This document shows, in pieces, positions 1 through 17,897 of a DNA stretch of 64,000 nucleotides. The stretch is from Candidatus Latescibacterota bacterium (lineage in GTDB: Bacteria; Latescibacterota; UBA2968; UBA8231). Within the stretch, counting starts at the first letter, position 1. Each line of letters starts with the position of its first letter. A program made the translations under genes and the position numbers. The notes beneath the pieces were generated by a model. It had not been told where the DNA came from. It saw only the letters and a list, made by a program, of their open reading frames with translations, and ran no database searches. The stretch lies in the NCBI GenBank assembly GCA_965197905.1, contig CBDAOB010000003.1, forward strand, positions 768,001-832,000, read 5' to 3'.

Positions 1-3000
1 ACCGTCGAATCGCCCGGTTTCAACGGTGCCCTTGCCGAGGAGGTGGGTGGCCTCCTGGAAGAGGCCGGCCTGCCGCGCAGCGGCATGTTGCGGCTGCGCG
101 ACGGGCGCACCGGACAGCTCTTCGAGCGCGAGACGACCGTCGGGTATATCTACTACATGAAGCTGCACCACATGGCCGAGGATCTGATCAAAACGAGGCC
201 CGCCGGCCCAATGACCACGGAGGAAAACCCCGAGAAACCGCAGGGATATCGGCTGGGCATCATGGAAACCTGGGCTCTGCAAGCTCACGGCGCCGCACAC
301 ATGTTGCGCGAGATGTCGACGGTACAAGGCGGGCAGGAGCAGGAGGTGACCTACGACGCCCTCGTGCACGGGGTTGATTTTCCGCCGCCCCAGCCGACCC
401 AATCTATTGCCAGGCTTGCCAGGCAGCTGCGCGGGCTCTGCCTCGATCTCCAGCTGCACGACGCCGGCGGTCATCAAATCAGTCTGAAGGAAGCGGGAGA
501 AGCGCCGGATCTGGATGCGATCGAGATGGCATCCGTAGAATTCGCAACATCGCAGACCGTCGATAGTTGGGGAATCGTAACCGAACTTCCGGACGCGACG
601 GCAGTGGAAGCGTTTTTGCAGGGCGATGCCCGAGACGGTGTAGGTCTGATCCCGTTGGCCTGTCCGGTACTGCACCCCTGGCGAACCATGTTGCCCGCGG
701 ATACGACGCCATCGGAGATTGCCAAGCTTCCAGTGCTGGCGCGATCCCTGAGGAATGGGCGCGCCCACGATTCGCTCTATCTGGCGCTGGCAGCCGTGAA
801 CGACATCGTGCGGTCGGATGATACCTCCGACCACGAAATCCGCACGGCACTCCAGGAGGCGGTGGACGAGCTTTTCGGCGACGGCGGCGGCGGCGATGGC
901 TTGAATCGATTGCTCTACGGGAAGCGTGGTTGGTTTGCCGCCGCAATGACCGGAACTAGGGTGGACTACTCGGGCAAGGCGGTCATCGCGCCAGGACCGA
1001 ACCTGCTCCAGGATGAATGCGGACTGCCGCGAAGAATGGCACGTTCTTTGTTCGCGCCATTCGTGGTCGGAGCCTTGTTGCGAGCCGGGAAAGCGAAGTC
1101 GGAAGAGGAGGCGCGCCGCATGATACGAGACGGGCGCGCCGAACGAGAGCTGGACGAGATTGCCTCGACGAAGCTGGTACTGCTACACCGGGCGCCGGTC
1201 CTGCACCGCTGGGGCATTCAAGCGTTCAAGCCGGTGTTGACCGAGGAGGAGGTTCTGCGGCTGCACCCGCTGACCAACGTGACCTTCAACGCCGACTTCG
1301 ACGGCGATGCGCTGGAGGTGTTCCTCCCTCTATCCGCTATCGCACAGCGCGAAGCGCAGGAGATGAGACCCACCAACAACCAGTTGGGCTCGGCCGACGG
1401 CACCTACATCCACGGCTTGAGCCAGGAGATGGTATTCGGTTGTTATTACGCGACCGCCGCGACCGCCACGGAGAAGCCGGTAATTGACCTCGCCAGCACG
1501 GACGCGGTGGCGGCCACCTTCGACCGCGGAGACGTGCGCATTCATGACCCGGTGAGAGTAATGGATGGGAGCTCACGCATTTCATCCGTGGGTCGCGTTT
1601 TGTTCGGTCAGCTGCTGCCGGATGGGTTGGAATGGACGGACGGGCAAGTCGACAAACGGGCACTGAAGGACCTGCTCGATCGGTGTTGGCACCAGTTGGG
1701 CCCCCCGTCTGCTGCCGAGCTGGCGAACGCAATGATGGTTTTCGGCTTTCGCATGGCAACCCGGTCAGGCGTATCGATCGGCAAAGACACCTATTCTCAG
1801 TTCAGCGGCTACGACGAGATGCTCGCCGCCGCGTGGCAGCGTGCGGACGAGCTCGCGGCCACCGACAACGACGAGCAAAGGATCGTCGATCACTGGATGG
1901 AAGTGCGTGATCGAATGACCGTGCAGGCGTTGGAAGAGCATGCCGCCATAGAGGACGGTCTCAATCCGACCCACATGATGGTTGTATCCGGAGCGCGGGG
2001 CAATTCGAATCAGCTGCTCCAGCAGATCGCCATGCGTGGTCTTTTTGTGCGCCAGGACGGTTCCCTTTATTCGATCCCATGTACGACCACCAACGTGCGG
2101 GGACAAAACCCGCTCGAGTTCCTTGCGGGGGTTGAAGGAGCACGCCGAGGTCTGGCGGATTGCACCTTGAAGGCTGCGCGCTCAGGATATCTCTTCAAGA
2201 GGATCGTCAGCTCGGTACAAGACGTGTTGATCACCGAGGAGAACTGCGGCACCGATGCCAGCCTGGAAAAACGGCCGCTCCGTGTGCGCCAGCGGGAAGT
2301 GCAAACGCTTGAGAACCGAATCGCCGGGCGGTTTGCCGCCGCCGATATCCTGTTTCCGGGAAGTAAAGCTCCGATCGTGGCGGCCGGGAACCTGATTGGC
2401 AGAGTTGAAGCTGCCGAGATTGGAGAAAGTGCCGTCGAGTCGGTTCTCGTTCGCTCGCCCATAACATGCGAATCCTCACGGGGCGTCTGCAGCAAATGTT
2501 ATGGGGTCGAGCTGAGCCGCTGGTCGCCGGCGACGGCCCACCTGCCGGTCGGTATCATCGCTGCCCAATCACTGGGCGAGCCGCTGACGCAGCTCACCAT
2601 GCGGTCGTTCACCTTGTCGATGCAGGGACAGCCTCCATCTGCAAACATCATCGCCAGCCTACCTGGACTGGAGGATTTGTTCGAGGCGGGCAAAAGACCC
2701 GGGAAGGAAGCATCGGAACTGCGAACCGCTCTGGTCGAGATGCTGGAGAAGGAAGGTTCGGGGTGCGCAGGAGCCTACCTTCTGGACGCGGTGCTCCTGC
2801 ACTATCGCAACATGGGAGTTCCCCTCGACGACAGACACCTGGAGATCGTCATCCGTCGGATGGTCCGTAGCGACGGGATCGACAGTGGACCGACTATCAG
2901 GGGCGTGACTGAAGTTGCGCGTCAGGGCAACGACTTCATGACGGCGGCGGTTTCCTTCGATGGAGTAGCCGCGCTGGCGCGGGCGGCCGCCAGCAGCCAA

Positions 3001-3066
3001 CGGATGCACCTGGATGGTGTGAGCAGCAGCACCGCTTTCGGCAAGCTTATGCCTGCAAGGGTCTAG
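1..3066 (+). CDS. rpoBC: Divergent fused DNA-directed RNA polymerase beta-beta' paralog (5'-partial; streamlined beta')
   Basis: Frame is open from base 1 (TVESPGFNGA..., matching RpoB 'ATPVFDGA'). RpoB C-terminal motifs DGRTG, GYIYYMKLHH and GIMETWALQAHGAA run without a stop into RpoC motifs RVDYSG, HRAPVLHRWGIQAF, NADFDGD (1288-1308), SGARG, GARRGLAD..SGYL, EENCG, RSPITC..GVCSKCYG, GIIAAQSLGEP.TQLTMR, DDRHLEIVIRRM and GKLMPA. Confidence 0.93.
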   Translation, partial: TVESPGFNGALAEEVGGLLEEAGLPRSGMLRLRDGRTGQLFERETTVGYIYYMKLHHMAEDLIKTRPAGPMTTEENPEKPQGYRLGIMETWALQAHGAAHMLREMSTVQGGQEQEVTYDALVHGVDFPPPQPTQSIARLARQLRGLCLDLQLHDAGGHQISLKEAGEAPDLDAIEMASVEFATSQTVDSWGIVTELPDATAVEAFLQGDARDGVGLIPLACPVLHPWRTMLPADTTPSEIAKLPVLARSLRNGRAHDSLYLALAAVNDIVRSDDTSDHEIRTALQEAVDELFGDGGGGDGLNRLLYGKRGWFAAAMTGTRVDYSGKAVIAPGPNLLQDECGLPRRMARSLFAPFVVGALLRAGKAKSEEEARRMIRDGRAERELDEIASTKLVLLHRAPVLHRWGIQAFKPVLTEEEVLRLHPLTNVTFNADFDGDALEVFLPLSAIAQREAQEMRPTNNQLGSADGTYIHGLSQEMVFGCYYATAATATEKPVIDLASTDAVAATFDRGDVRIHDPVRVMDGSSRISSVGRVLFGQLLPDGLEWTDGQVDKRALKDLLDRCWHQLGPPSAAELANAMMVFGFRMATRSGVSIGKDTYSQFSGYDEMLAAAWQRADELAATDNDEQRIVDHWMEVRDRMTVQALEEHAAIEDGLNPTHMMVVSGARGNSNQLLQQIAMRGLFVRQDGSLYSIPCTTTNVRGQNPLEFLAGVEGARRGLADCTLKAARSGYLFKRIVSSVQDVLITEENCGTDASLEKRPLRVRQREVQTLENRIAGRFAAADILFPGSKAPIVAAGNLIGRVEAAEIGESAVESVLVRSPITCESSRGVCSKCYGVELSRWSPATAHLPVGIIAAQSLGEPLTQLTMRSFTLSMQGQPPSANIIASLPGLEDLFEAGKRPGKEASELRTALVEMLEKEGSGCAGAYLLDAVLLHYRNMGVPLDDRHLEIVIRRMVRSDGIDSGPTIRGVTEVARQGNDFMTAAVSFDGVAALARAAASSQRMHLDGVSSSTAFGKLMPARV

Positions 3067-4612: not shown

Positions 4613-5008
4613 ATGCCCAAACCACCTACATCCGATGTCCAGCAAGTCATTCAAGGGGCGCCTGTCGTTCAGGTCGAGAGCCCGCAAAAGACCGCGGAAT
4701 ACTATCGCGACGTGCTCGGATTCAAGTTCGATTACGGTACCGATGACTACGCCGTCGTCTGGCGCGACAACGCCGCCATTCACTTTTTCAAGGGCGAAAA
4801 ACCTGCTTCAGGGATAAAGATCTTTCTCTGGGTCAAGAATGCGGATGAGGTGCGCTCTGAACTCGGGAAAACGGGCGCAAAAATATCGGTCGAAGTCGAC
4901 GATCGCGACTACGGCATTCGTGATTTCGGTGTCACCGATTGCAACGGCCTCGAGCTGGTGATAGGCCATGACCTACATTGGAGCCCAGATGAATGCGCGG
5001 AATCCTAA
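4613..5008 (+). CDS. VOC (glyoxalase/bleomycin resistance) family protein
   Basis: YYRDVLGF and DRDYGIRDFGVTDCNG motifs; ATG 4613 follows GGAGAGG. Confidence 0.8.
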   Translation: MPKPPTSDVQQVIQGAPVVQVESPQKTAEYYRDVLGFKFDYGTDDYAVVWRDNAAIHFFKGEKPASGIKIFLWVKNADEVRSELGKTGAKISVEVDDRDYGIRDFGVTDCNGLELVIGHDLHWSPDECAES

Positions 5009-7250
5009 ATCCACTCTGGTGACATTAGCACTGGCCGCGTGCTGGATAGGGTCGCCAGTTCCTGCTCAGGAGATCGACGATCTCCTCGAGTTCTCCTTGG
5101 CAGAGCTGGTGGAGATGGATGTCACACTGGCCTCCGGCATCGAGGAGAGCATCTTCGACGCACCGGCGGCGATGGTGGTGATAACCGACGAGGAAATACG
5201 GCAGAGAGGATACACGAATCTCGCCGAAATCATTACCGACCTTCCCGGCTTCGACGTGGTGCTCGCCAACGGCATTCCCTACCTCTACGCCTATCAGCGG
5301 GGTTACAGACACCCCTCGACGCAACGCACTCTACTGATGATCGACGGACACGTCGACAACCACCTGTGGACACACCAGGCCGTCTTCAGTCGGCGATTTC
5401 CGGTTTCCAGCATCGAACGCGTGGAGGTGCTCTACGGACCGGCATCCGCCATTTACGGTCCCAACGCGTTTCTCGGCATCGTCAATATCGTAACCCAGGA
5501 TGGCAGCGAACTGAGGGACGCTGGTTATACCAGCAACATTCGAATTCATGGAGGCAGCTTCGACTCAAAGGGTGTGGACGTTTCAGTCAGAGGCAAGGTA
5601 GGTGCTGTCGAAAGTGGCGGCGTCTCCTTCGGCTTGGCGGGGCGTGTTTTCCGCAGCGAAGAGCCGGATTTCTCGAACGACTTCGGCTTCATCAGCAACG
5701 AACTGTATTCCGATGCCAATACGTGGGGTCCGATTCTCGATCTGGAACACCGCAATCGCAGTTTCGGGACCTACTACGATCCCACCGACGACAGTTCGAT
5801 TCTCGGTAACGTGAGCTACAAAGGCGCGAAGCTCGGCTTCGTGCACTGGGTCAGGAAGGAAGGCTACGGTCCCCACTATGTTGCCGACCGCGTACAGAAC
5901 AACATTTTCTGGAATTCCTCGGGAACACAGATTTACGGTGAGACTGAAAAACGCGTCCACGACAGACTGGTCAGCAGCTCCCTGTTGTCCTATCGGACGA
6001 GCCGAACGTGGGGAGGCTGGCCGGAAGCGTTGCCCGACTGGCGCGAGGGGATGCAAGACTTCTCGTTCGTCAGTCTCACCCAATGGAACTCGATCAGCGA
6101 CAGCTGGCTTTTCAAACAACAGTTCGAGGCCGCTGCGACCGACGATCTGGTACTGACCGGTGGACTCAAATTCGAACGCAAAGAACTCACGAAAGCGTAC
6201 GACATCCCCGGCTACTGGGGCGCATTCAGCTCCACCGTGCCTTCGAACGACCCCGGTCTCCACGGACAGGGTGCCGGTATCGGACACAGCACGGATTCTA
6301 CCTACGCGGCACCACCCCCACCCAACCCCAACATGCCACCGCAAAACCTGGCATTGACCGAAGACATTGGAGGATTCGTCCAGGGGATCTGGAACTGGGC
6401 GCCGTTTCGATTCAACGCCGGACTTCGCTATGACGACAATTCGCTCTATGGCAACTCGATCAACCCGAGGGTTTCAGCCGTTTACCACTTCTCATCCCGC
6501 AGCGCGTTCAAGTTGCTCTATGGAGAAGCGTTCCAGGAGCCGGCGCCGATCCAGGTTTGGGGCGGATGGAACGGCCGCCTGGCCAACCCCGACCTGGAGC
6601 CTGAGAAAGCACGCAACATCGAGGCGATCGCCATGTATCAGACCGACCGGATCTTTCATGACGCCTCCCTGTTCTTCTCACACTATGAAGACGTGATCAA
6701 GGAAGAGGCCGAGAATGCCGGAACGCGGGATATTTGGGGCCTCGAGTACCGTGGTCGTTTCACCCTGCCAAACCTGCTCGTCGGCGCTCCCGACATCAAC
6801 GGATTCCTCTACTATTCGTTCACCAGTGTGAAGAGCAGTACCCATTTCGATCATGAAGCGGGTCGGTGGGAGGACGGCGACACCGACCTGGGAGACATTG
6901 CTCCGCACAAAGTCAATCTCGGCCTCAACCTACCCGCCGCGAGACACTGGAACTTCAACCTGAGAGCCAACTTCGTGGGCGAACGCAAGCTTTACTCGCA
7001 GAATCCCCTGCGGGCACGCGGAAGAGCCGTGGACAGCTACGTAGTGGTCAACGGCGCAGCGTCCTACAGCGTCGGCGTTTTCGATCTCACATTGAAGGTG
7101 ACCAACCTTCTCGATCGCTCTTATTTCCACCCCGGCGTGGAGCAGGCGGATAGCGGAGATGACTTTAGTCAGAGGAGCCTGGGGTTTCGGAACTCGCTCA
7201 TCCCCCAGCCGGGTCGCTCCTTCATCTTGAAGCTGGGCATCGCCTACTAG
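4989..7250 (+). CDS. TonB-dependent receptor
   Basis: Signal peptide, 'LLEFSLAELVEMDV' leader, plug motif IERVEVLYGPASAIYGPNA, NPDLEPEK, C-terminal GRSFILKLGIAY. Confidence 0.9.
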   Translation: MNARNPKSTLVTLALAACWIGSPVPAQEIDDLLEFSLAELVEMDVTLASGIEESIFDAPAAMVVITDEEIRQRGYTNLAEIITDLPGFDVVLANGIPYLYAYQRGYRHPSTQRTLLMIDGHVDNHLWTHQAVFSRRFPVSSIERVEVLYGPASAIYGPNAFLGIVNIVTQDGSELRDAGYTSNIRIHGGSFDSKGVDVSVRGKVGAVESGGVSFGLAGRVFRSEEPDFSNDFGFISNELYSDANTWGPILDLEHRNRSFGTYYDPTDDSSILGNVSYKGAKLGFVHWVRKEGYGPHYVADRVQNNIFWNSSGTQIYGETEKRVHDRLVSSSLLSYRTSRTWGGWPEALPDWREGMQDFSFVSLTQWNSISDSWLFKQQFEAAATDDLVLTGGLKFERKELTKAYDIPGYWGAFSSTVPSNDPGLHGQGAGIGHSTDSTYAAPPPPNPNMPPQNLALTEDIGGFVQGIWNWAPFRFNAGLRYDDNSLYGNSINPRVSAVYHFSSRSAFKLLYGEAFQEPAPIQVWGGWNGRLANPDLEPEKARNIEAIAMYQTDRIFHDASLFFSHYEDVIKEEAENAGTRDIWGLEYRGRFTLPNLLVGAPDINGFLYYSFTSVKSSTHFDHEAGRWEDGDTDLGDIAPHKVNLGLNLPAARHWNFNLRANFVGERKLYSQNPLRARGRAVDSYVVVNGAASYSVGVFDLTLKVTNLLDRSYFHPGVEQADSGDDFSQRSLGFRNSLIPQPGRSFILKLGIAY

Positions 7251-7350
7251 ATAGCGTTGGCGCAGCACCTGTCGGCATGGTCCCAGCTTCTCGACAGCTT
7301 GGTCGAGACTCGAGTAGCTTGCCGGAGCTGACGAAACCTTCGACGGAAAG

Positions 7351-9677: not shown

Positions 9678-12600
9678 TCATTTTACCAACAGCAAGCGGC
9701 TCGTTCTCACATCGCGACCGGTCGATAACTGATACATGTAGATACCCGTTGCCACCGCTCGTCCGGCGTCGTCGGTACCGTCCCAGGTTATAGAGTGGTG
9801 GCCGGACCTTTCCGCCGCGGCGACGATGTGTCGAATCCGTTGCCCCGTCACGTTGTAGATGGAGAATTCGACGGGACTCGCCTCGGGAAGATGGTAGTTT
9901 ATTACGGTTTGCGCGTTGAACGGATTCGGAAAGTTCGGGAAGAGCGTCAAGACCTCGGGTAGCGCTTGTCCATCGGCCGCTATCGACATAGGCAGCTCGG
10001 GATACGACACTTGCAGTTGCCGGTTTGCCTTCAGGTCGGTGCGGATGCTCTCGCGCCCATCCGGCCAGACGATGCGCAACGTGTCAACTCGAGTCCCGGC
10101 GCCCAAGCCGAAGTGAATCTCGAGAGGCGCCTGGCTGCCGTATCCGAATCCGGGATGCAGCTCTTTGTACTGTCGCCCTTCCTGCGTAACCAGTAAGATC
10201 TGGGCGCCCAGTGCGTCTCGATTACCGCCGATCCCGATGAGGTCCAGCTGCAGCCAGCGGCTCTCTTCCAACTCGCTGCGATACAAACGACTCGACACCG
10301 CGTCGGCAACCAGCAGATCTTGATCGCCATCTCCGTCGAAATCGGCAACGCTGAGGCCGCGCCCGGCCGATTCCTTCTCGAGGCCGGAAAAACCACCCAG
10401 CGATCTCCACCCGTCGGAACCGTTGTTGTACAACTGGTCTCCGCCGTTTGCAGAGCCCACTCCCGTAGTGATCAGATCGAGATCGCCGTCGTTGTCGGTA
10501 TCGACGAAAGCGGCGCCGGCACACGAGGTTCCCAGCTTCCCCGGTCTCTCCTCAGTGACCCAGTTGAAACCCGTTCCGTCCAGATTCTTGAACAGCCGAT
10601 TGTCTGACGTTTCCCCGGTGGTGAAAAGGTCGACAAATCCATCCCCGTCGTAGTCGCCGAAGACACCGGCCACGTCGTCGTTGGAAAACGGCACTCCCAA
10701 TTCCTCGCCGACCTCGGTAAACTGCCCGGTGTCATTCCGGTAGAGCCGGCTTGGACCGTTCCTGTTCGCCACCAGAACGTCAGCATCGCCATCGCGATCG
10801 AAGTCGCCGAAAGACAGACCGCGACCGTCTCCGGTATCGTTCAATCCCTTCTGTGCTGCCATATCGACAAAAGCTGTCCCGTCGTTGCGAAACAATCGAT
10901 TGGTATCCGGGCTGGCGTTTACCAGGAACAGATCCAGATCGCCATCGGCATCGGCATCCCAGAAACCGGCGCTGCGGCCGGAACCATCATCTCCCAATGA
11001 ACCGCCTTCACCGCCGACAAACTGCGTGGTTACGTCCGTGAACTGGGAATCTTCGTTGCGCAACAACCGATTGGCCTGGCCCTGGCGGACGAGATACAGA
11101 TCCAGATCGCCGTCGCCGTCGTAATCGCCCACGGCGAACCCGCGACCCACACCCTCGTCTGCAAGACCTACCTCTGCATCGACCAGACGAAATGCATCGC
11201 CGTCGTTGCGCAACAGCTGATCCTCATCTCCCTGTCGCACGAGCAGAAAATCGAGATCGTTGTCGCCGTCAAAGTCGAAGAATCCGGCGCCGTTACTGTT
11301 GTTCAGATCCGCTTCGATCTCCACCGTCGAATAGGTAACCGGCACCTCCACCAGTTCGAGGGGCCGCGGATCGAGAAAGGTCGCCAAACTCTCGAATGAC
11401 GTCGATATACCGAATTGCAGTTCATAATTCCCACCTGCTAGCCCTGAGACCGACGGAAATTCGATCTCTCTGTCGGTAAATGGCACCAGCGGCGGCTGCT
11501 GTTGTTGGTAAGAAGCTACCACTCGGCCGTCCCGCAAAATCCGGTATTCCACCGGGAAGGGCTGGGACTTTCCATTACCACCGTTGGATACCAGAAGTCG
11601 AGGAACTACATCGCTCGCGGCCGCCGCCGACTCGGGAGCCAACACCGATTTGATCTCCAGACGCGGTTTCACTTCAGCTTCCACATCTCCCATGAGGAAG
11701 GTGATCTGATCGCCGAGGAAGCGCTGTCGGCTTTCCGACAACGTCCGCGGAAGATCAAGACCGACGAATATGGTGCGAAAGCGACCGGCATCGAATCGCA
11801 CCGCGGCGACGCGCCCCAACGTGTCCTGCAAAATCGATTCCGTGCCGTCGTTAGGCCGGACAGAGGCGAAGTTTATGCTGCCGTCGGCCCGATCCCCTGT
11901 CACAGACTCGAACGCACCGAAACCTGCGCGGGTTAGCTGCGGTGCAATCCCCAGGATATTGCTTCGGAATTCGCCTCCAGTTGGAGAATACGCCATGTAC
12001 GGAGTCGCCAGGAGTATCCTCCCTCCCTGGTGTGCGAACTCCTCGACGAAGTTTTGTTCTAATTCGTTGATTCTCGGCATCAGCCATATCACGAATTTAC
12101 CCGCGCCGATGTAGTGCCGTAGGAGGAGGTCGTAGAGTGATTTATCGGATAGATCCGAACTCTTGTTCAACACGTTCGCTTCCAAACCCCTTTTTTCCAG
12201 GATCGAGCGGAGGTCGTCGACTAGCGGGGCACCCTTTTTTAGATGTTTGTCGATGATCAGAACGGGACTCCACCGGGTGAAGTTCACCGCTTCCACGGTC
12301 AGTAGTCGGGACCCCATGAGCCGGCGTCCGTTTTTGTCGCGCACGCGAGCCACGATCTTGTAGTTGCCGGGCGCCGGGGGATTGAACTTGATTTGGAACA
12401 GGCGGTGATCTTTGTCCTCGCTTCGTACTAGAGGAAGCACGAGCCCGCCCGGGGCACCGCCTCCTCGGCGAGAAAAGGCGGATCCACGCACCAGCAGCTC
12501 GACCGATTCCACTGCCGCCGTCGTCGTCACCTGTAGCAAGATTGAATCGCCGTGCAGGACGAGAGCCCCATCATTGCGAATGATTGTCCCTGGAATCTCC

Positions 12601-15600
12601 ATTTCCATCTCTTGACGGAGACTCTGATTCAGCAGTGGAATGGCATTCGCGACGATTTCGCCTATATCTGGCAAACGCGCCACGTCGAAGGCGAGGAACA
12701 CCGCCCGGTAGCCACCTGCATCCACGTGTACTCCTGCCGCATTGCCGGTCGTACTCAGGATCAGCGGGATAGCGTGTTCGTGGGGGACCAGCTTGCGATG
12801 GGTGATCCTTGCCCCCTGGCTCAAAAACGTTCCCGCGCTGTCGGAGAACACAGACTCGAGTTGCTTCTCTTCGTAGTTGCCGGCTGTTGTGTGCAGGTAG
12901 GTCTCGACGAATTCGGCAAAGCTGTGCGGAGAGCCGCCTTTCGAACCAAGGAACAATCGTCCGTGGCGATCGAGGAACTTCTGCAGAATTTCTGGCACGC
13001 CGTTCGCCCCGAACATCCCGAGCCAGAAGAGCGCCTTGTTTTCTCCGGCGTAGCTTAGAATCAACTCTTCGTACAGCCTTTTGTCCCTCTCGGGGTAATC
13101 GATGATGTCGGCGGAGGTATTGTTCTTGGACATCGCATGCACGATCTCCTCCCGCAAGAAAGACCGGATGCGTCCCGAAATCGATTGGTTGACGAAGACC
13201 AGGTTTGGTCGATCCATGAGCCGCAGAACCTGACGTCGGGCCGAGCTGGGCATACTGTTTCCCTGTTCATCAAAAATGCGTGCTGAATAGAGGAAGTGGC
13301 CCGATTCGGGGACCCGTACCGATCCCGTAAATCCGCCCCCTGCTTTTCGAGCCAATGGTACGGTCTCGACGAGGGCCATGGTCGGCAGCAGACGCACCTC
13401 AAGCTCGGAACGGACAACCTCTTCCGGTGCGTGGATATGAACCGTGGGTGCTTCGGACCCCTTCAGCAATACTGACTCCCCGACCAGTTCGTCCGTTTCA
13501 AACTCCAGCGCGACGTCTGATATATTCTCGGAGGTTAGATACGCCAACCCCGATTCGAGGAGGGAACGGGTTATGTAGGCGTCTAGCGGACCGAGATCGA
13601 AAGGGAAATAGATCATGCGGAAGGTGCCCGTGTCGACCCGCATTGCCGCGGCGTTGGAGGTGGCGTCATACAGCATCGGTTCAGCGGGATCTAAGAGCAT
13701 CAGGGACGAGTAGCTCGAGTTGAACGGATCCGATGACTGCAGGTCCAGCCCGGTAATCATGCTCGTCCTTCGAGACGATTGCTGCTGAATGTGCAACACC
13801 TCCCTCCCGAATGTTCCCCATGACCGTTGCCTGGAGGAGATCATCATCCGGCCCCCTTGCTCGAGGAATGAACGCATATGGATTCGTGCCTCCCGGCTGA
13901 TCTTCTCACCCATCCATAGCACCGTTCCACCGGTGCGAGCGAACGCGGGCAACAGAACCTCGTAAAGCTCGCCTTCCTCTGGTGCACCATCGATCATGTA
14001 GTGAGACTGACCCCGGGCGGTCATAACCTGGTCGAGGATTTCGACCAGGTTAGCACGGCTCTCTTCGTCTATCTCCTTGCTCACGAAGGTCAGTACTTCC
14101 GCCTCGCCAGATGTCCTCCCTAAGAGGAGCGTCGAGTCGGCGAAAGTTGCGTACCCATTCTGACCGTAGACCCGGACGAAAATTTCGTAGAAACCCTCGT
14201 ACTCGGGAGGAATCGAAGCTTCAAAAATATGGGCATCGCCTTGCATACCGAGCTTCTCCATCGATACGGTCAACACGTGATCGTGTTCTTGGAGGGTACG
14301 TATCATCAGATCCGCCTGGGAGATCTCGCCCTGCACCAAGGCTCGCACAGGAGTCGCAACTCCGCGTGGCACAACTGCTGCGCGGCCGAGGATTTCGTGG
14401 CCGGGGACTTCGAAGTCGACATCGTTTTCCGGGTATTCGCCCTCGACGACGAGCTTCAGGGTGTCCCGTTTTATCTGCGCGAACGCTGCGTTGTAGCTCG
14501 CGTAGATCTGGCGCCCGTATTCCACCACGATCTCGATCTCGGTGCCTGGCTCCGCTTCCCGGCTCACTCTCAGCGGGATAACCTCGACGTGGCTCTTACC
14601 GGGATCCAGATCGAACGATTCTTCGACCCTCAGCGTTTTGGATCGCGGCGTCCAGTTTCCGCGCTCCCATGCGGGCTCGATGAATTCCGAGTCCCAGCGT
14701 AAGGTGGGTCGCAGACGCTTGAAGTTCCGTAGGGTCCAATTGTCAAGGGTCAATTCCAGCTGGATGGTCTCTCCAGGATTGAGGCGCCCGTCGCCATTTC
14801 CCGCCGTATCAAAGGTCGGGGTGTCCACCAGGTCGAGATTGAAGTCCAGCATCAGTTCCAACAAACCGGAGGGAGCGCGCTGAAACACGAAACCGTGGAG
14901 AACCCCGTCGAGCACGATATTCGACGATGAAACCTCGATGCGGCTCGAGTCCGCCGGATCGATGAGGATTCCGTACCAGCTGTCTCCCAGCTGCATCGAT
15001 TTGAAGAAAACATCCGACTTTGAATGGTCACCGACGATCAGGTCGCCGTTGATCTCCAGCTCCGACAGGTTGGGATCCACTCCACCGCGCATCCGGTCGC
15101 TTCCCGACATGCGTACATTCGTCTCCCCGTGGATGTGCAGCTCGCCGTCGACCGCTACGCGCACATCTCCGTCGACTACGACATCGCCCGCCCAATCCAC
15201 CCGTTCATTGATGATGCCTGCCCAGCGGGGTTGGGTTACGTCGACGATCATGGTTGTGCCCCTGCGATTCATATCGAGGCTCAGACCTGTTGTGGCCGCC
15301 GAGGAGTGCCCCCACGGGTTGTTCGAAGGGTTGGAAAACTGATCCAATCGCTTCGCCTTCACGCCGTCGAAAGGGTCGGTGGCGTCGCCGAAGTTACCCC
15401 CGTTCAGCTGTGAATACGCGGTGTCATGGGCCCAATAATCGAGATTGTCGCGACCGAAACGACCATCCGGAAGGCGGCCTTTTGGGAATCCTGAATCGGC
15501 GTACAGACCGTCGGCACAGACCAGGTCCAAGGTCTTGGCGGTTTCGTCAGCGTTTCCCCACAATTGAGGTCGGACGTGCCAGACCAAGAGGCCTTCTCCG

Positions 15601-16709
15601 GGGATGTTCCGTCGGTAGAACGAACTCGACCGGGTCACTTGCTCGAGCAGGAGATACTCCTGGGTGGCGGAGCGGTCGCCCCTGGCAACCATACGCAGCG
15701 GAATCTTAAAGATGCTACCTCCGGAAAGGCGATCGGACACCTCCAGGCCGGTCGCATCCGTTTCAACCTCAATCAGCTGCTGATTGTCCACCCCGATCCA
15801 GCCGAGGAGCTCCAGACTGCGGGCGCTGAAGGGCGCGGGCCCGTCTTGACCGGTCCATCCGTGGGCACCCCATCCCATCAATCCCCAACGGCCGATGCCG
15901 GCGCTGTCCTCTTCAGGTGTGCCAAAAGCCCGGTCGTATAAGTCGGGGAGTCCCAGCCGGTGTCCGAACTCGTGGGCCATGGAACCAACCGTCTGGGCGT
16001 AGTTCCCCTCCTGCTGCAAGGCCCCATGCCTGATGGATCCGGCGATGGCGACCGTGCCGCCCTTGGCGGCAGCGTCATCGCTGTCGAGCATGAGCGAACC
16101 GAGGTTCGCAATGCCCGTGGCGCCTCCCGTAATGAATCCGCGAGGGGTGGACAGGGTGTTGACGAAGATGTAGTCGACGAACCCATCATCGTCACCGGAG
16201 TTCGGAACGCCATCCTCGCCGTCGTTGTCGAATTGCGACATGTCGACGTCCCGGTCGACCTGGGCCAAAATCTCGGCCAGGAATTCGTCATATTTGCCGT
16301 ATCGCGACGGGTCGTGCACCACGTATGCCGAAGCAGGGCGATCGGAGCTGTACCGTTTGGGCAGCACGCTACCATTGACCGTGAGCCGCGCACCGGACAT
16401 CTCGCTGAAAAAGTGAGAAAAGCTTCCTGGAAGATTCTCGTCGAAAAGCTTGCTGGCGAAGGGCGGCGCCGTCTGAATCTGTGGCGCCTCATTCTTGAAT
16501 TTCGCGTAGACGACGAGGACATTGACAGTTCCCGTCGTGTGTGACAAGGTCATCTTCGCCACCGCGCCGGCAGGTAGCGGCGGAGACTCGTATCCCGAAC
16601 AGACGAATTCTTGCGCGGCAAGCGGTACGGACGTACTGAGGCCCAGGAGGAGGGGGAGAATCCTTGGGGTGCATTTAAGATGCTCCAGTTTCCGTAAAGT
16701 ACCCAACAT
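9678..16709 (-). CDS. Giant secreted multidomain protein: M6 (immune inhibitor A-like) metallopeptidase, three internal ~300-aa repeats, CARDB-like domain, FG-GAP/CRTAC1 repeats, ASPIC/UnbV, FlgD-Ig C-terminal domain
   Basis: HEFGHRLGLPDLYD (HEFGH at 15960-15974), WGLMGWG Met-turn, many D(F/Y)DGDGDLD repeats, HPGFGYGSQ..IHFGLG, C-terminal NFPNPFN...WDGTDDAGRAVATGIY. ATG 16709 has a GGAG RBS. Confidence 0.88.
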   Translation of the reverse strand: MLGTLRKLEHLKCTPRILPLLLGLSTSVPLAAQEFVCSGYESPPLPAGAVAKMTLSHTTGTVNVLVVYAKFKNEAPQIQTAPPFASKLFDENLPGSFSHFFSEMSGARLTVNGSVLPKRYSSDRPASAYVVHDPSRYGKYDEFLAEILAQVDRDVDMSQFDNDGEDGVPNSGDDDGFVDYIFVNTLSTPRGFITGGATGIANLGSLMLDSDDAAAKGGTVAIAGSIRHGALQQEGNYAQTVGSMAHEFGHRLGLPDLYDRAFGTPEEDSAGIGRWGLMGWGAHGWTGQDGPAPFSARSLELLGWIGVDNQQLIEVETDATGLEVSDRLSGGSIFKIPLRMVARGDRSATQEYLLLEQVTRSSSFYRRNIPGEGLLVWHVRPQLWGNADETAKTLDLVCADGLYADSGFPKGRLPDGRFGRDNLDYWAHDTAYSQLNGGNFGDATDPFDGVKAKRLDQFSNPSNNPWGHSSAATTGLSLDMNRRGTTMIVDVTQPRWAGIINERVDWAGDVVVDGDVRVAVDGELHIHGETNVRMSGSDRMRGGVDPNLSELEINGDLIVGDHSKSDVFFKSMQLGDSWYGILIDPADSSRIEVSSSNIVLDGVLHGFVFQRAPSGLLELMLDFNLDLVDTPTFDTAGNGDGRLNPGETIQLELTLDNWTLRNFKRLRPTLRWDSEFIEPAWERGNWTPRSKTLRVEESFDLDPGKSHVEVIPLRVSREAEPGTEIEIVVEYGRQIYASYNAAFAQIKRDTLKLVVEGEYPENDVDFEVPGHEILGRAAVVPRGVATPVRALVQGEISQADLMIRTLQEHDHVLTVSMEKLGMQGDAHIFEASIPPEYEGFYEIFVRVYGQNGYATFADSTLLLGRTSGEAEVLTFVSKEIDEESRANLVEILDQVMTARGQSHYMIDGAPEEGELYEVLLPAFARTGGTVLWMGEKISREARIHMRSFLEQGGRMMISSRQRSWGTFGREVLHIQQQSSRRTSMITGLDLQSSDPFNSSYSSLMLLDPAEPMLYDATSNAAAMRVDTGTFRMIYFPFDLGPLDAYITRSLLESGLAYLTSENISDVALEFETDELVGESVLLKGSEAPTVHIHAPEEVVRSELEVRLLPTMALVETVPLARKAGGGFTGSVRVPESGHFLYSARIFDEQGNSMPSSARRQVLRLMDRPNLVFVNQSISGRIRSFLREEIVHAMSKNNTSADIIDYPERDKRLYEELILSYAGENKALFWLGMFGANGVPEILQKFLDRHGRLFLGSKGGSPHSFAEFVETYLHTTAGNYEEKQLESVFSDSAGTFLSQGARITHRKLVPHEHAIPLILSTTGNAAGVHVDAGGYRAVFLAFDVARLPDIGEIVANAIPLLNQSLRQEMEMEIPGTIIRNDGALVLHGDSILLQVTTTAAVESVELLVRGSAFSRRGGGAPGGLVLPLVRSEDKDHRLFQIKFNPPAPGNYKIVARVRDKNGRRLMGSRLLTVEAVNFTRWSPVLIIDKHLKKGAPLVDDLRSILEKRGLEANVLNKSSDLSDKSLYDLLLRHYIGAGKFVIWLMPRINELEQNFVEEFAHQGGRILLATPYMAYSPTGGEFRSNILGIAPQLTRAGFGAFESVTGDRADGSINFASVRPNDGTESILQDTLGRVAAVRFDAGRFRTIFVGLDLPRTLSESRQRFLGDQITFLMGDVEAEVKPRLEIKSVLAPESAAAASDVVPRLLVSNGGNGKSQPFPVEYRILRDGRVVASYQQQQPPLVPFTDREIEFPSVSGLAGGNYELQFGISTSFESLATFLDPRPLELVEVPVTYSTVEIEADLNNSNGAGFFDFDGDNDLDFLLVRQGDEDQLLRNDGDAFRLVDAEVGLADEGVGRGFAVGDYDGDGDLDLYLVRQGQANRLLRNEDSQFTDVTTQFVGGEGGSLGDDGSGRSAGFWDADADGDLDLFLVNASPDTNRLFRNDGTAFVDMAAQKGLNDTGDGRGLSFGDFDRDGDADVLVANRNGPSRLYRNDTGQFTEVGEELGVPFSNDDVAGVFGDYDGDGFVDLFTTGETSDNRLFKNLDGTGFNWVTEERPGKLGTSCAGAAFVDTDNDGDLDLITTGVGSANGGDQLYNNGSDGWRSLGGFSGLEKESAGRGLSVADFDGDGDQDLLVADAVSSRLYRSELEESRWLQLDLIGIGGNRDALGAQILLVTQEGRQYKELHPGFGYGSQAPLEIHFGLGAGTRVDTLRIVWPDGRESIRTDLKANRQLQVSYPELPMSIAADGQALPEVLTLFPNFPNPFNAQTVINYHLPEASPVEFSIYNVTGQRIRHIVAAAERSGHHSITWDGTDDAGRAVATGIYMYQLSTGRDVRTSRLLLVK

Positions 16710-16838
16710 TTTGTACTCCGTCTGTTTGCGGAACACAGTGTCTTGGGGAGACCTGAGGTTCAACGGTCGCTCATCCACAACGCGGATGGCGGTGGGACAG
16801 GAGAAAAGAGTCGTGGGGGAAGTTCGAGTATATCCAAT

Positions 16839-17027: not shown

Positions 17028-17897
17028 ATGAACTTGATTACCGTGACAGAGAGATTCCCGACGCAAGAATCCTGCATTGCTCATCTGGAGCGGATACGCT
17101 TCGGCGATGAGCCCTTTTGCCCCTTGTGCGGCACGGTCGGGGAATGCGCCCGCAAGAAGCAGGGGAATGTAATCGGGCGTTGGAACTGTCACGCTTGCAA
17201 ATCCAGCTTCAATGTCTTATCCCAGACCATGTTTCAAGGCACGCATCTTCCCTTGCAAAAGTGGTTCTGCGCCATCGCCCTGATCGTGAACGCCAAGAAA
17301 AGCCTGTCCAGTTGCCAGCTCGGGCGTGACTTGAACCTGAATCAGCGGTCCGCCTGGTACATGCAACAGCGCATCCGGGCTGAAATGGCTACCAAGCAGG
17401 GAAGAATCAGGTTAACTGGACTCATCGAAGCCGACGAGACCTACGTCGGCGGACGCCCCAGGAAGCGCAACAGGCGCGACGACGACAAACCCAACCTCAG
17501 AGGACGGGGAACGCGCAAGACCGCGGTTATCGGCGCTGTGGAGCGCTCAGGGAAGGTTGTGGCTCAGGTCGCCGACGATCTCTCCGCTAAGGGCGTGCTC
17601 GAGTTTATCAAACGTGCCATCAATCCTGACGCCTCGACGTTGGTCACGGACGAATATGGGGCCTACAACGTAGTGCGGCGGATCATGGATCACTGCGTGA
17701 TTCAGCATTCCAAGCGTTATGTTGATGGCACGATTCACACGAACACGATCGAAGGCGTGTGGTCTTTGCTCAAGCGGGCGTGGTATGGATCGCATCATCA
17801 CTACACGCCGCTTTACGTGGCCGAGGCTTGTTTCAAGTACAATCACCGCGACGACGACAACGCCTTCGGTTCTTTCCTACAAGGGTGCTTCAAGTAA
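17028..17897 (+). CDS. IS1595 family (ISXO2-like) transposase
   Basis: Zn ribbon CPLCG..WNCHAC, HTH region, catalytic motifs EADETYVGG, LVTDEY, HTNTIEGVWSLLKR. Confidence 0.95.
   Translation: MNLITVTERFPTQESCIAHLERIRFGDEPFCPLCGTVGECARKKQGNVIGRWNCHACKSSFNVLSQTMFQGTHLPLQKWFCAIALIVNAKKSLSSCQLGRDLNLNQRSAWYMQQRIRAEMATKQGRIRLTGLIEADETYVGGRPRKRNRRDDDKPNLRGRGTRKTAVIGAVERSGKVVAQVADDLSAKGVLEFIKRAINPDASTLVTDEYGAYNVVRRIMDHCVIQHSKRYVDGTIHTNTIEGVWSLLKRAWYGSHHHYTPLYVAEACFKYNHRDDDNAFGSFLQGCFK

Follow-up and report, generated by a model that had tools for sequence, protein, structure and literature searches.

The 64,000-nucleotide stretch of Candidatus Latescibacterota DNA analysed here (the window, G000:C3:768001-832000) opens inside a gene whose product joins the N-terminal domain (NTD) of the RNA polymerase α subunit, the β subunit and the β′ subunit in a single chain of 1917 amino acids (aa). 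Our sequence comparisons indicate that this fusion is a conserved, selected and catalytically complete core from which nearly every part for sigma docking, DNA opening and RNA separation is missing, and the overall reading that we favour, and consider somewhat probable, is of a minimal polymerase that would carry out sigma-independent synthesis on a single-stranded or pre-opened template. A preliminary description of this DNA had drawn attention to nucleotides 568-900, where it saw a clamp with several modules removed; we found that this region is the remnant of the β′ clamp N-terminus within the fusion.

Results

The β′ clamp is reduced to its anchors throughout the family

The E. coli rpoB-rpoC locus (L182) served as the numbering reference, and the fusion was placed both in a 50-sequence alignment and in a 29-sequence β′ alignment made up of 15 full-length family members, E. 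coli, the host's own β′ and 12 other canonical sequences; counts out of 15 and out of 14 below refer to the family members and the canonical sequences, respectively. The full-length fusion protein is denoted P0002 and its window-encoded 1021 residues P0001. From SW to LQEAVD the fusion has 93 residues against 265 in E. coli, such that about 172 are missing in any alignment register, and from LY to LQEAVD it has 23 against 29. E. coli β′ positions 57-100 are gapped in 15/15 members, including C70, C72, C85 and C88, which are cysteine in 14/14 canonical sequences, and P0002, the reference for block mapping, is also without E. coli β′ 116-185, 190-230, 257-266, 285-290 and 314-324. The clamp-head segment measures 9-15 residues in all 15 members compared with at least 119 in the canonical sequences (medians of 10 and 120), the lid segment 7 compared with 15, and the rudder region 10-16 compared with 27. 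Lysine and arginine together number 2 in the clamp helices of the family against 9.5 in canonical ones, and the sequence of these helices is weakly conserved across the family. The boundaries of the deletions are identical family-wide. The clamp losses are a trait of the family and reflect neither chance nor local decay.

The intervals given in the preliminary description agree with these measurements. The 24 codons that it counted from SW to GLIPLACPVLHPW, with no cysteine pair, are exact in frame 1, as are its 15 codons from HPW to LPVL and the seven residues NGRAHDS from LR to LY, and the E. coli distances that it quoted as roughly 70, 125 and 17 residues come to 69, 126 and 17 on E. coli rpoC. 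It had further described the helix pair before LQEAVD as shortened and stripped of its basic face, and we likewise find 34 residues in place of 43 and a net charge of -3 in place of +4 (family versus canonical). The alignment to E. coli β′ that it had proposed as a check places the modules as missing and not merely diverged, and the deletions, which it took to be in frame and at module boundaries, are common to 15/15 members at 45-50% identity; selection on the region, which it had proposed, is evident as a ratio of nonsynonymous to synonymous substitution rates (dN/dS) of 0.15, that is, purifying. Its account of the rudder needs amending: the rudder is indeed gone in 15/15, but the GDGGGGDG that it saw in its place (nt 877-900) belongs to this genus only, the Gly-rich stretch being confined to this genome and to P0004, an 83%-identical ortholog of the same genus that reads GDGIGGDG. 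In the remaining members the helices run into 'GLTRLLYGKRGW' through 0-2 residues with no Gly run, and the idea of a Gly linker as a general seal therefore falls.

We also considered an alternative register, obtained with phmmer against solved chains, in which 'PLACPVLHPW' lies on the canonical 'LPVLPPDLR' and the lid and clamp helices are full-length but diverged; this was rejected because the family consensus holds both anchors apart, as 'HxELAxPVKHPW' and 'LPVLPRSLR'. Separately, window positions 597-629 show a 33-base match at 91% identity to G000:C5:955130-955162, which is probably due to chance.

Losses outside the clamp

P0002 is also without E. coli β 155-442, which form the lobe, and without parts of the jaw and of the β′ C-terminal tail, and the flap-tip helix (β 893-911) is shortened or gone in 15/15. 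Measured against the host's own subunits, and counting blocks of at least 8, 481 aa of β′ and 413 aa of β are missing. Switch 2 is altered at four positions that do not vary among the canonical sequences (14/14): every member (15/15) has W for R337 and A for N341, R339 is replaced by A in 13 members and by T in the other 2, and only 3/15 retain R346. Fork loop 2 is shorter by 4-5 residues in every member. Moreover, the rifampicin pocket (residues ~430-480, upstream of the window) carries Q513R in 13/15, H526Q in 14/15, S531V in 14/15 and I572N in 15/15, so that the fusion may be insensitive to rifamycins.

In domain searches of the fusion, Rpb1 domain 1 (PF04997, spanning the clamp head, lid, clamp helices and rudder) gave no match at an E-value of 0.1, the β lobe families PF04561 and PF04563 gave no Pfam match, and no α C-terminal domain family was among the Pfam hits. 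Elsewhere in the genome PF04997 and PF04561 match only in the canonical rpoC and rpoB, and there is thus no detectable source in trans for the lost modules. The suggestion that docking of ordinary sigma factors and NusG has been lost gains independent support: the flap-tip helix (15/15) and the β lobe are deleted and the clamp helices are acidic, which would remove canonical contacts for sigma regions 2 and 4 and for NusG. The idea of single-stranded or pre-melted templates is backed indirectly by the replaced switch-2 arginines and the shorter fork loop 2, since substitutions in these elements of the E. coli and Pyrococcus enzymes impair melting, de novo initiation and elongation through duplex (PMC2943606, PMC2241882).

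The catalytic centre and the predicted fold

At the positions compared the catalytic centre is intact, with its Mg-binding and NTP-binding residues, bridge helix, second Zn site and a short trigger loop all kept. In β′, R425, N458, D460, D462, D464, R731 and R780 are invariant in 15/15, as are the second Zn site residues C814, C888, C895 and C898 and, in β, R678, N684, M685, E813, D814, K1065, K1073, R1106 and H1237. The trigger-loop position H936 is His in one member, Y in 8, A in 3, T in 2 and S in 1.

AlphaFold2 (AF2) models of the window-encoded 1021 residues (β′) and of residues 1-1100 (α-β) have mean predicted local distance difference test scores (pLDDT) of 84.5 and 82.9 and predicted template modelling scores (pTM) of 0.86 and 0.81, respectively, and the 10-residue pLDDT blocks within the nt 568-900 region lie at 72-93. 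Among the 50 Foldseek matches listed all are RNA polymerase, 49 of them largest-subunit chains (D/J/N/F/G) and one an integrative RPOA-RPOC model; their highest query-normalised TM-score is 0.68. A predicted complex of the fused α NTD with the host RpoA NTD scored 0.13 against a mark of 0.32, in a run made without controls.

Domain make-up and class

Frame 1 is open from window base 1 to 3066, and the gene starts 2688 nt before the window, at G000:C3:765313. Pfam (PF01193 and PF01000) and NCBIfam place the α NTD at fusion residues 8-199, the Pfam matches scoring 31.2 bits (cut-off 24) and 56 bits (cut-off 33.9) at residues 20-197; β occupies approximately residues 407-1049 and β′ approximately 1197-1798 (Pfam and NCBIfam). 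All NCBIfam equivalog matches fall far under their cut-offs: 486.3 bits against 963.5 for TIGR02386 (RpoC), with the match starting at model position 309; 638.8 against 801.15 for TIGR02013 (RpoB); and 93.7 against 227.8 for TIGR02027 (RpoA), of which only positions 3-202 are matched. By curated thresholds and by defining modules the fusion is outside the RpoC, RpoB and RpoA classes.

Family, relatives and the order of losses

Searching 5.8 billion proteins with a word index gave 23 clusters that are 43-100% identical to the fusion. Sixteen measure 1917-2003 aa and carry the α insert domain; six are shorter (1589-1712 aa), five of them (P0019-P0023) beginning at the β N-terminus and the sixth (P0024) inside β; and the last, P0025 (1227 aa), is a fragment with α and β domains only. 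Considering that P0019-P0023 are without α, either some family members are unfused or their α is encoded separately. When 1.84 billion representatives were scanned exhaustively with HMMER, 8 reached at least 752 bits and the next score was 545 bits. The 15 full-length members are 45-50% identical and open over 1917-2003 aa; their sources label them only 'hypothetical protein' or 'RNA polymerase beta subunit', and one is labelled as Candidatus Latescibacteria.

The fused-α profile also matches the N-terminus of larger metagenomic proteins that are unnamed in their sources (P0026, P0027, P0030, P0128 and P0136, of 2241-2437 aa) and of P0131 (1948 aa). In a quick maximum-likelihood tree of the β′ core (56 rows; P0137 was excluded beforehand for its anomalous matched envelope), supported by Shimodaira-Hasegawa-like approximate likelihood ratio tests (SH-aLRT) only and no bootstrap, all α-fused proteins stand on one side of a branch (SH-aLRT 98). 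Among these the long forms diverge earliest and P0131 is the sister of the short family, whose stem measures 0.77 substitutions per site (support 100). In the long forms and P0131 the Zn finger is already absent, whereas the clamp head, lid, basic clamp helices and rudder that the short family lost are kept, which indicates that the reduction was stepwise and that loss of the clamp modules was a later step.

The best 80 matches among viral contigs are 24-38% identical to the fusion and none reaches the α part; a phage origin was rejected, there being no close relative among these contigs. Many of the viral loci L220-L294 have single stretches of ~4.2-4.9 kb that match residues ~370-1766 at 24-30% identity and are without α, and these appear to be one-chain β-β′ phage polymerases. 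A full-text literature search returned no description of the α-β-β′ fusion or its family, although other papers or supplements may hold one; the excerpted text of a survey of β/β′ architecture (PMC11515920) mentions only β-β′ fusions, in Wolinella and Cand. Adlerbacteria.

Genome context, distribution and selection

The fusion is an accessory paralog beside normal rpoA, rpoB and rpoC: contig C5 carries canonical rpoB and rpoC that score above their cut-offs, and there is one canonical rpoA in the genome. A third polymerase gene encodes a miniature β-β′ fusion of ~1000 aa in a 1073-aa open frame with NADFDGD present (Table 1). The genome holds 29 sigma region-2 matches, of which the nearest to the α-β-β′ gene is 101 kb away with none at any shorter distance. 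The α-β-β′ gene is flanked by genes of opposite orientation, and its neighbours are unrelated to it and are of metabolic, flagellar and outer-membrane kinds (dehydrogenase, metallopeptidase, FliG, rhodanese, TonB-dependent receptors and others), with no phage genes beside it. Upstream lie a promoter-like site, TTGCCT-17-TATTAT, and GGAGG before the ATG, and the host polymerase appears to transcribe the gene from this ordinary promoter-like site. A genome of the same genus (G002) is fully syntenic around the gene and hence uninformative on linkage; none of the neighbours recurs in the flanks available for two other carriers, and three short contig ends of relatives have no common neighbour.

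Within the phylum 4/168 species genomes carry the gene, all of one family (3/75 there besides the present genome). In two other phyla 0/79 and 0/401 genomes matched at an E-value of 1e-150, with only 2-5 candidates scored per genome.

Compared with its ortholog from the same genus the fusion is 83% identical, with a dN/dS of 0.22 overall and 0.15 in the nt 568-900 region; rpoC from the same two genomes is 98.3% identical with a dN/dS of 0.018 at similar dS. The beta/β′ joint has the highest value of the segments tested (0.41), and no 80-codon window has a ratio of nonsynonymous to synonymous polymorphism (pN/pS) above 0.84 that would point to positive selection. The 90% cluster of the ortholog includes interrupted copies, P0272+P0274 (1010+908 aa), P0273+P0276 (350+1574 aa) and P0277 (995 aa): the first is broken by one stop, at codon 1011 close to the β/β′ joint, and the second by a frame break near codon 341-346. 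They may represent genuine pseudogenes, split but functional genes, or errors of assembly.

Coordinates and other features of the window

Table 1. Parts of the α-β-β′ fusion gene and two further genes of the same genome (window = G000:C3:768001-832000)
Feature	Location	Strand	Basis or remark
Single-chain α(NTD)-β-β′ gene, C-terminal 1021 codons + stop	window 1..3066	+	ORF lists, translations
Full fusion gene, 1917 codons	L003:13313-19066		open reading frame (ORF) extension into upstream DNA
α NTD joined to β by ~40-residue Pro-rich linker	L003:13313-14050 (residues 1-245)		upstream of window
β C-terminal part, Rpb2 domains 6 + 7	window 1..450	+	PF00562, PF04560; K1065, K1073, R1106, H1237 equivalents in 15/15
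β/β′ joint, poorly conserved	window 451..525	+	P0002 1047-1071; 17-residue insertion after last aligned β residue
First β′ strand + helix, ending in SW anchor (SW nt 565-570)	window 526..570	+	aligns to 'ASPExIRxWS'; AF2 strand 176-181, helix 184-188
Zipper/Zn-finger stand-in, 24 codons vs 69 residues in E. coli, no cysteines	window 571..642	+	alignment
GLIPLACPVLHPW, counterpart of canonical 'GHIELAxPVxHIW' anchor	window 643..681	+	family consensus 'HxELAxPVKHPW'
15 codons where E. coli has 126-residue clamp head	window 682..726	+	alignment
LPVLARSLR anchor (LPVL nt 727-738), then lid remnant NGRAHDS (nt 754-774)	window 727..774	+	7 vs 17 residues
Shortened acidic clamp-helix hairpin	window 769..876	+	AF2 helices P0001 257-272, 278-292; pLDDT blocks 73-93
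GDGGGGDG at rudder site, genus-specific filler	window 877..900	+	rudder absent family-wide
Switch 2 (LLYGKRGWFAAAMTGTRVDYSG), conserved arginines replaced	window 910..975	+	alignment
Catalytic NADFDGD motif	window 1288..1308	+	N458, D460, D462, D464 invariant 15/15
Bridge helix	window 2137..2208	+	R780 15/15, K789 14/15; AF2 long helix 704-739
Short trigger loop, Thr at catalytic His site	window 2560..2688	+	R933 15/15
Miniature β-β′ fusion	G000:C5 ~903,300-906,500	-	outside window
Sigma-70 region-2 gene directly upstream of miniature fusion	sigma match at C5:906,940-907,140		

Three further observations concern the rest of the window. Positions 5084-7287, most of a TonB-dependent receptor gene (4968-7250), have no counterpart in the otherwise syntenic G002. 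A 2366-aa ORF on the minus strand (9678-16778) encodes an M6 peptidase with FG-GAP repeats, ASPIC/UnbV and FlgD-Ig domains and a weak type IX secretion sorting tail. An IS1595-family transposase (DDE_Tnp_IS1595 and a zinc ribbon) lies at 17028-17897, where the GC content is lower (0.50-0.55 at 16-20 kb).

Discussion

Comparison with known polymerases

With the canonical core (α2-β-β′-ω; E. coli and T. thermophilus, e.g. 1iw7 and 4jkr) the fusion shares the same two double-psi-barrel catalytic core, including NADFDGD, E813/D814, K1065/K1073/H1237, the bridge helix, trigger loop, second Zn site and α NTD. It differs in being one chain instead of five, in lacking the α C-terminal domain, the Zn finger, clamp head, lid, rudder, flap tip, lobe, jaw and C-terminal tail, and in having the trigger-loop His replaced. 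The housekeeping β-β′ fusions (NF007172 and NF011417) likewise hold β and β′ in one polypeptide and are the best NCBIfam matches of the fusion, but at 790 and 742 bits against cut-offs of 5372 and 4632; these models have ~2840-2890 positions, whereas the 1917-aa fusion adds α and coexists with separate rpoB and rpoC. To our knowledge, the member proteins of both models keep all modules and are the sole polymerase of their cells. The larger metagenomic α-β-β′ proteins share with the short family the N-terminal α and the missing Zn finger. The miniature β-β′ fusion of the same genome is also an accessory one-piece enzyme without a Zn finger and clamp head, but it has no α, a sigma gene upstream and a very long tree branch.

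According to the excerpted text of PMC5467207, YonO of the B. subtilis SP-beta prophage is also a single polypeptide and works without cellular regulatory modules; it is ~100 kDa, prophage-encoded and very distant, with no detectable trigger-loop homology, whereas the present fusion is about twice that size, is 35-40% identical to canonical β/β′, keeps its trigger loop and has no phage neighbours. Engineered mutants described in excerpts of PMC2241882 (Pyrococcus lid, rudder and fork 2 deletions) and PMC2943606 (E. coli R339) have the same elements missing or replaced, but these carry one lesion each and are impaired, whereas the family combines all of the lesions and is naturally conserved. 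We suggest that the fusion would work like a minimal two-barrel polymerase; by curated thresholds and defining modules it is neither a housekeeping β/β′ fusion nor YonO-like.

Proposed mode of action

The peripheral modules have been cut out cleanly, namely the Zn finger/zipper, clamp head, lid, rudder, and clamp-helix tip with its basic face, and with them the flap-tip helix, β lobe, jaw and C-terminal tail. In the mechanism that we propose, RNA polymerisation would be retained, and canonical docking of sigma-70-family factors or NusG would not take place. Having no switch-2 arginines, a short fork loop 2 and neither lobe nor jaw, the enzyme would be poorly equipped to melt promoters and to hold downstream duplex, and its RNA synthesis may be sigma-independent, on a single-stranded or opened template, possibly from a primer, nick or end. 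With no lid, rudder or Zn finger its RNA product would tend to stay paired to the template. Several excerpted studies of mutants bear on these steps. E. coli enzymes with R339 substitutions were defective in melting, depended on primers and formed unstable elongation complexes (PMC2943606), and in Pyrococcus a switch-2 Arg mutant was inactive on templates with downstream duplex, fork 2 was required for de novo (unprimed) initiation, and RNA displacement was driven by upstream DNA rewinding (PMC2241882). The lid, rudder, zipper, lobe and flap are said in the accessible part of PMC5467207 to be individually dispensable in vitro under mild conditions.

A number of points weigh against this proposal. 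The Pyrococcus enzyme without lid, rudder or fork 2 made short products only, even on a single-stranded template (excerpt of PMC2241882); since lid and rudder deletions were poor on single-stranded DNA, loss of these loops alone is no predictor of good activity there, and since the deletions were impaired the family must compensate in ways not visible here. The mechanism is, moreover, drawn wholly from missing parts. The retained clamp hairpin is modelled with confidence and could bind a co-evolved partner, and neighbourhoods could be compared in only one genus and three short contig ends, so that a linked partner may be missed. The miniature polymerase of this genome adjoins its own sigma gene, and reduction alone is therefore compatible with sigma use. 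Finally, the dN/dS of the fusion is ~12 times that of rpoC; together with the interrupted copies and the 4/168 carriers this marks the gene as dispensable, and its function could be eroding in some lineages.

Alternative explanations

A cellular enzyme of RNA-dependent RNA polymerase (RdRP) or primase type, encoded on the chromosome of a free-living bacterium alongside the ordinary polymerase, is a more particular proposal, which we put forward tentatively and as something short of probable: it would act sigma-free on single-stranded DNA or RNA, or from a nick or primer, leave its product paired to the template, and have a role outside ordinary gene expression, its purpose being perhaps priming, R-loop or double-stranded-RNA formation, or defence. 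A promoter-specific transcriptase whose dedicated factor is encoded elsewhere, be it a diverged sigma among the 29 or an unrelated protein, seems to us rather doubtful. Such a factor would dock on the acidic clamp helices and take over melting, like the extra subunits of the jumbo-phage non-virion polymerase, and the clamp-helix hairpin is indeed kept in 15/15 and confidently folded in the model, the genome has 29 sigma region-2 matches and a sigma gene directly upstream of the miniature fusion, and non-sigma promoter factors are used by phage multisubunit polymerases (excerpts of PMC5449584 and PMC7598289). However, no sigma region-2 match occurs within 101 kb and the flanks of two other carriers have no neighbour in common with this genome; all 15 members have lost the flap tip and carry substitutions at the switch-2 arginines, which contribute to holding the melted template; and the poor conservation of the clamp-helix sequence is unexpected for a fixed docking site.

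It is improbable that the fusion is simply a slimmer alternative core, insensitive for example to rifamycins or to a phage inhibitor, that still assembles with host sigma, NusG, omega and free α. The α dimerisation domain is kept (PF01193, PF01000), the fold is β′-like and the rifampicin-pocket positions are changed, all of which would suit such a core, but the sigma contacts (clamp-helix basic face, flap-tip helix, zipper and Zn finger) are deleted or charge-reversed in 15/15, the NusG contacts (clamp-helix tip and β lobe) are likewise lost in 15/15, and the β′ C-terminal tail and jaw are also missing. Least probable, and in our judgement very unlikely, is a functionless decaying duplicate in which the deletions are erosion. 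The excess of dN/dS over that of rpoC (0.22 against 0.018), the few carriers in the phylum and the interrupted copies all speak for decay; yet assembly errors may explain the interrupted copies, 15 members that are only 45-50% identical keep a reading frame open over 1917-2003 aa, the checked catalytic residues are invariant and the deletion boundaries identical among them, and dN/dS is well below 1 in every segment.

Implications

The lid, rudder, zipper, Zn finger, flap tip, lobe and switch-2 arginines have until now been studied singly in laboratory mutants, and here all of these elements are lost together in one long-kept protein whose members are 45-50% identical. A single recombinant polypeptide opens two questions, namely what a minimal working bacterial-type polymerase is, and what the core is able to do without sigma, NusG and the strand-separating loops. 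As a practical tool, a one-chain α-β-β′ enzyme would need one gene and no assembly, and it may be drug-insensitive. If the tentative RdRP or primase role is true, the passage from the larger α-fused relatives to the short form would be a natural record of the conversion of a multisubunit polymerase into an RdRP-type or primase-type enzyme.

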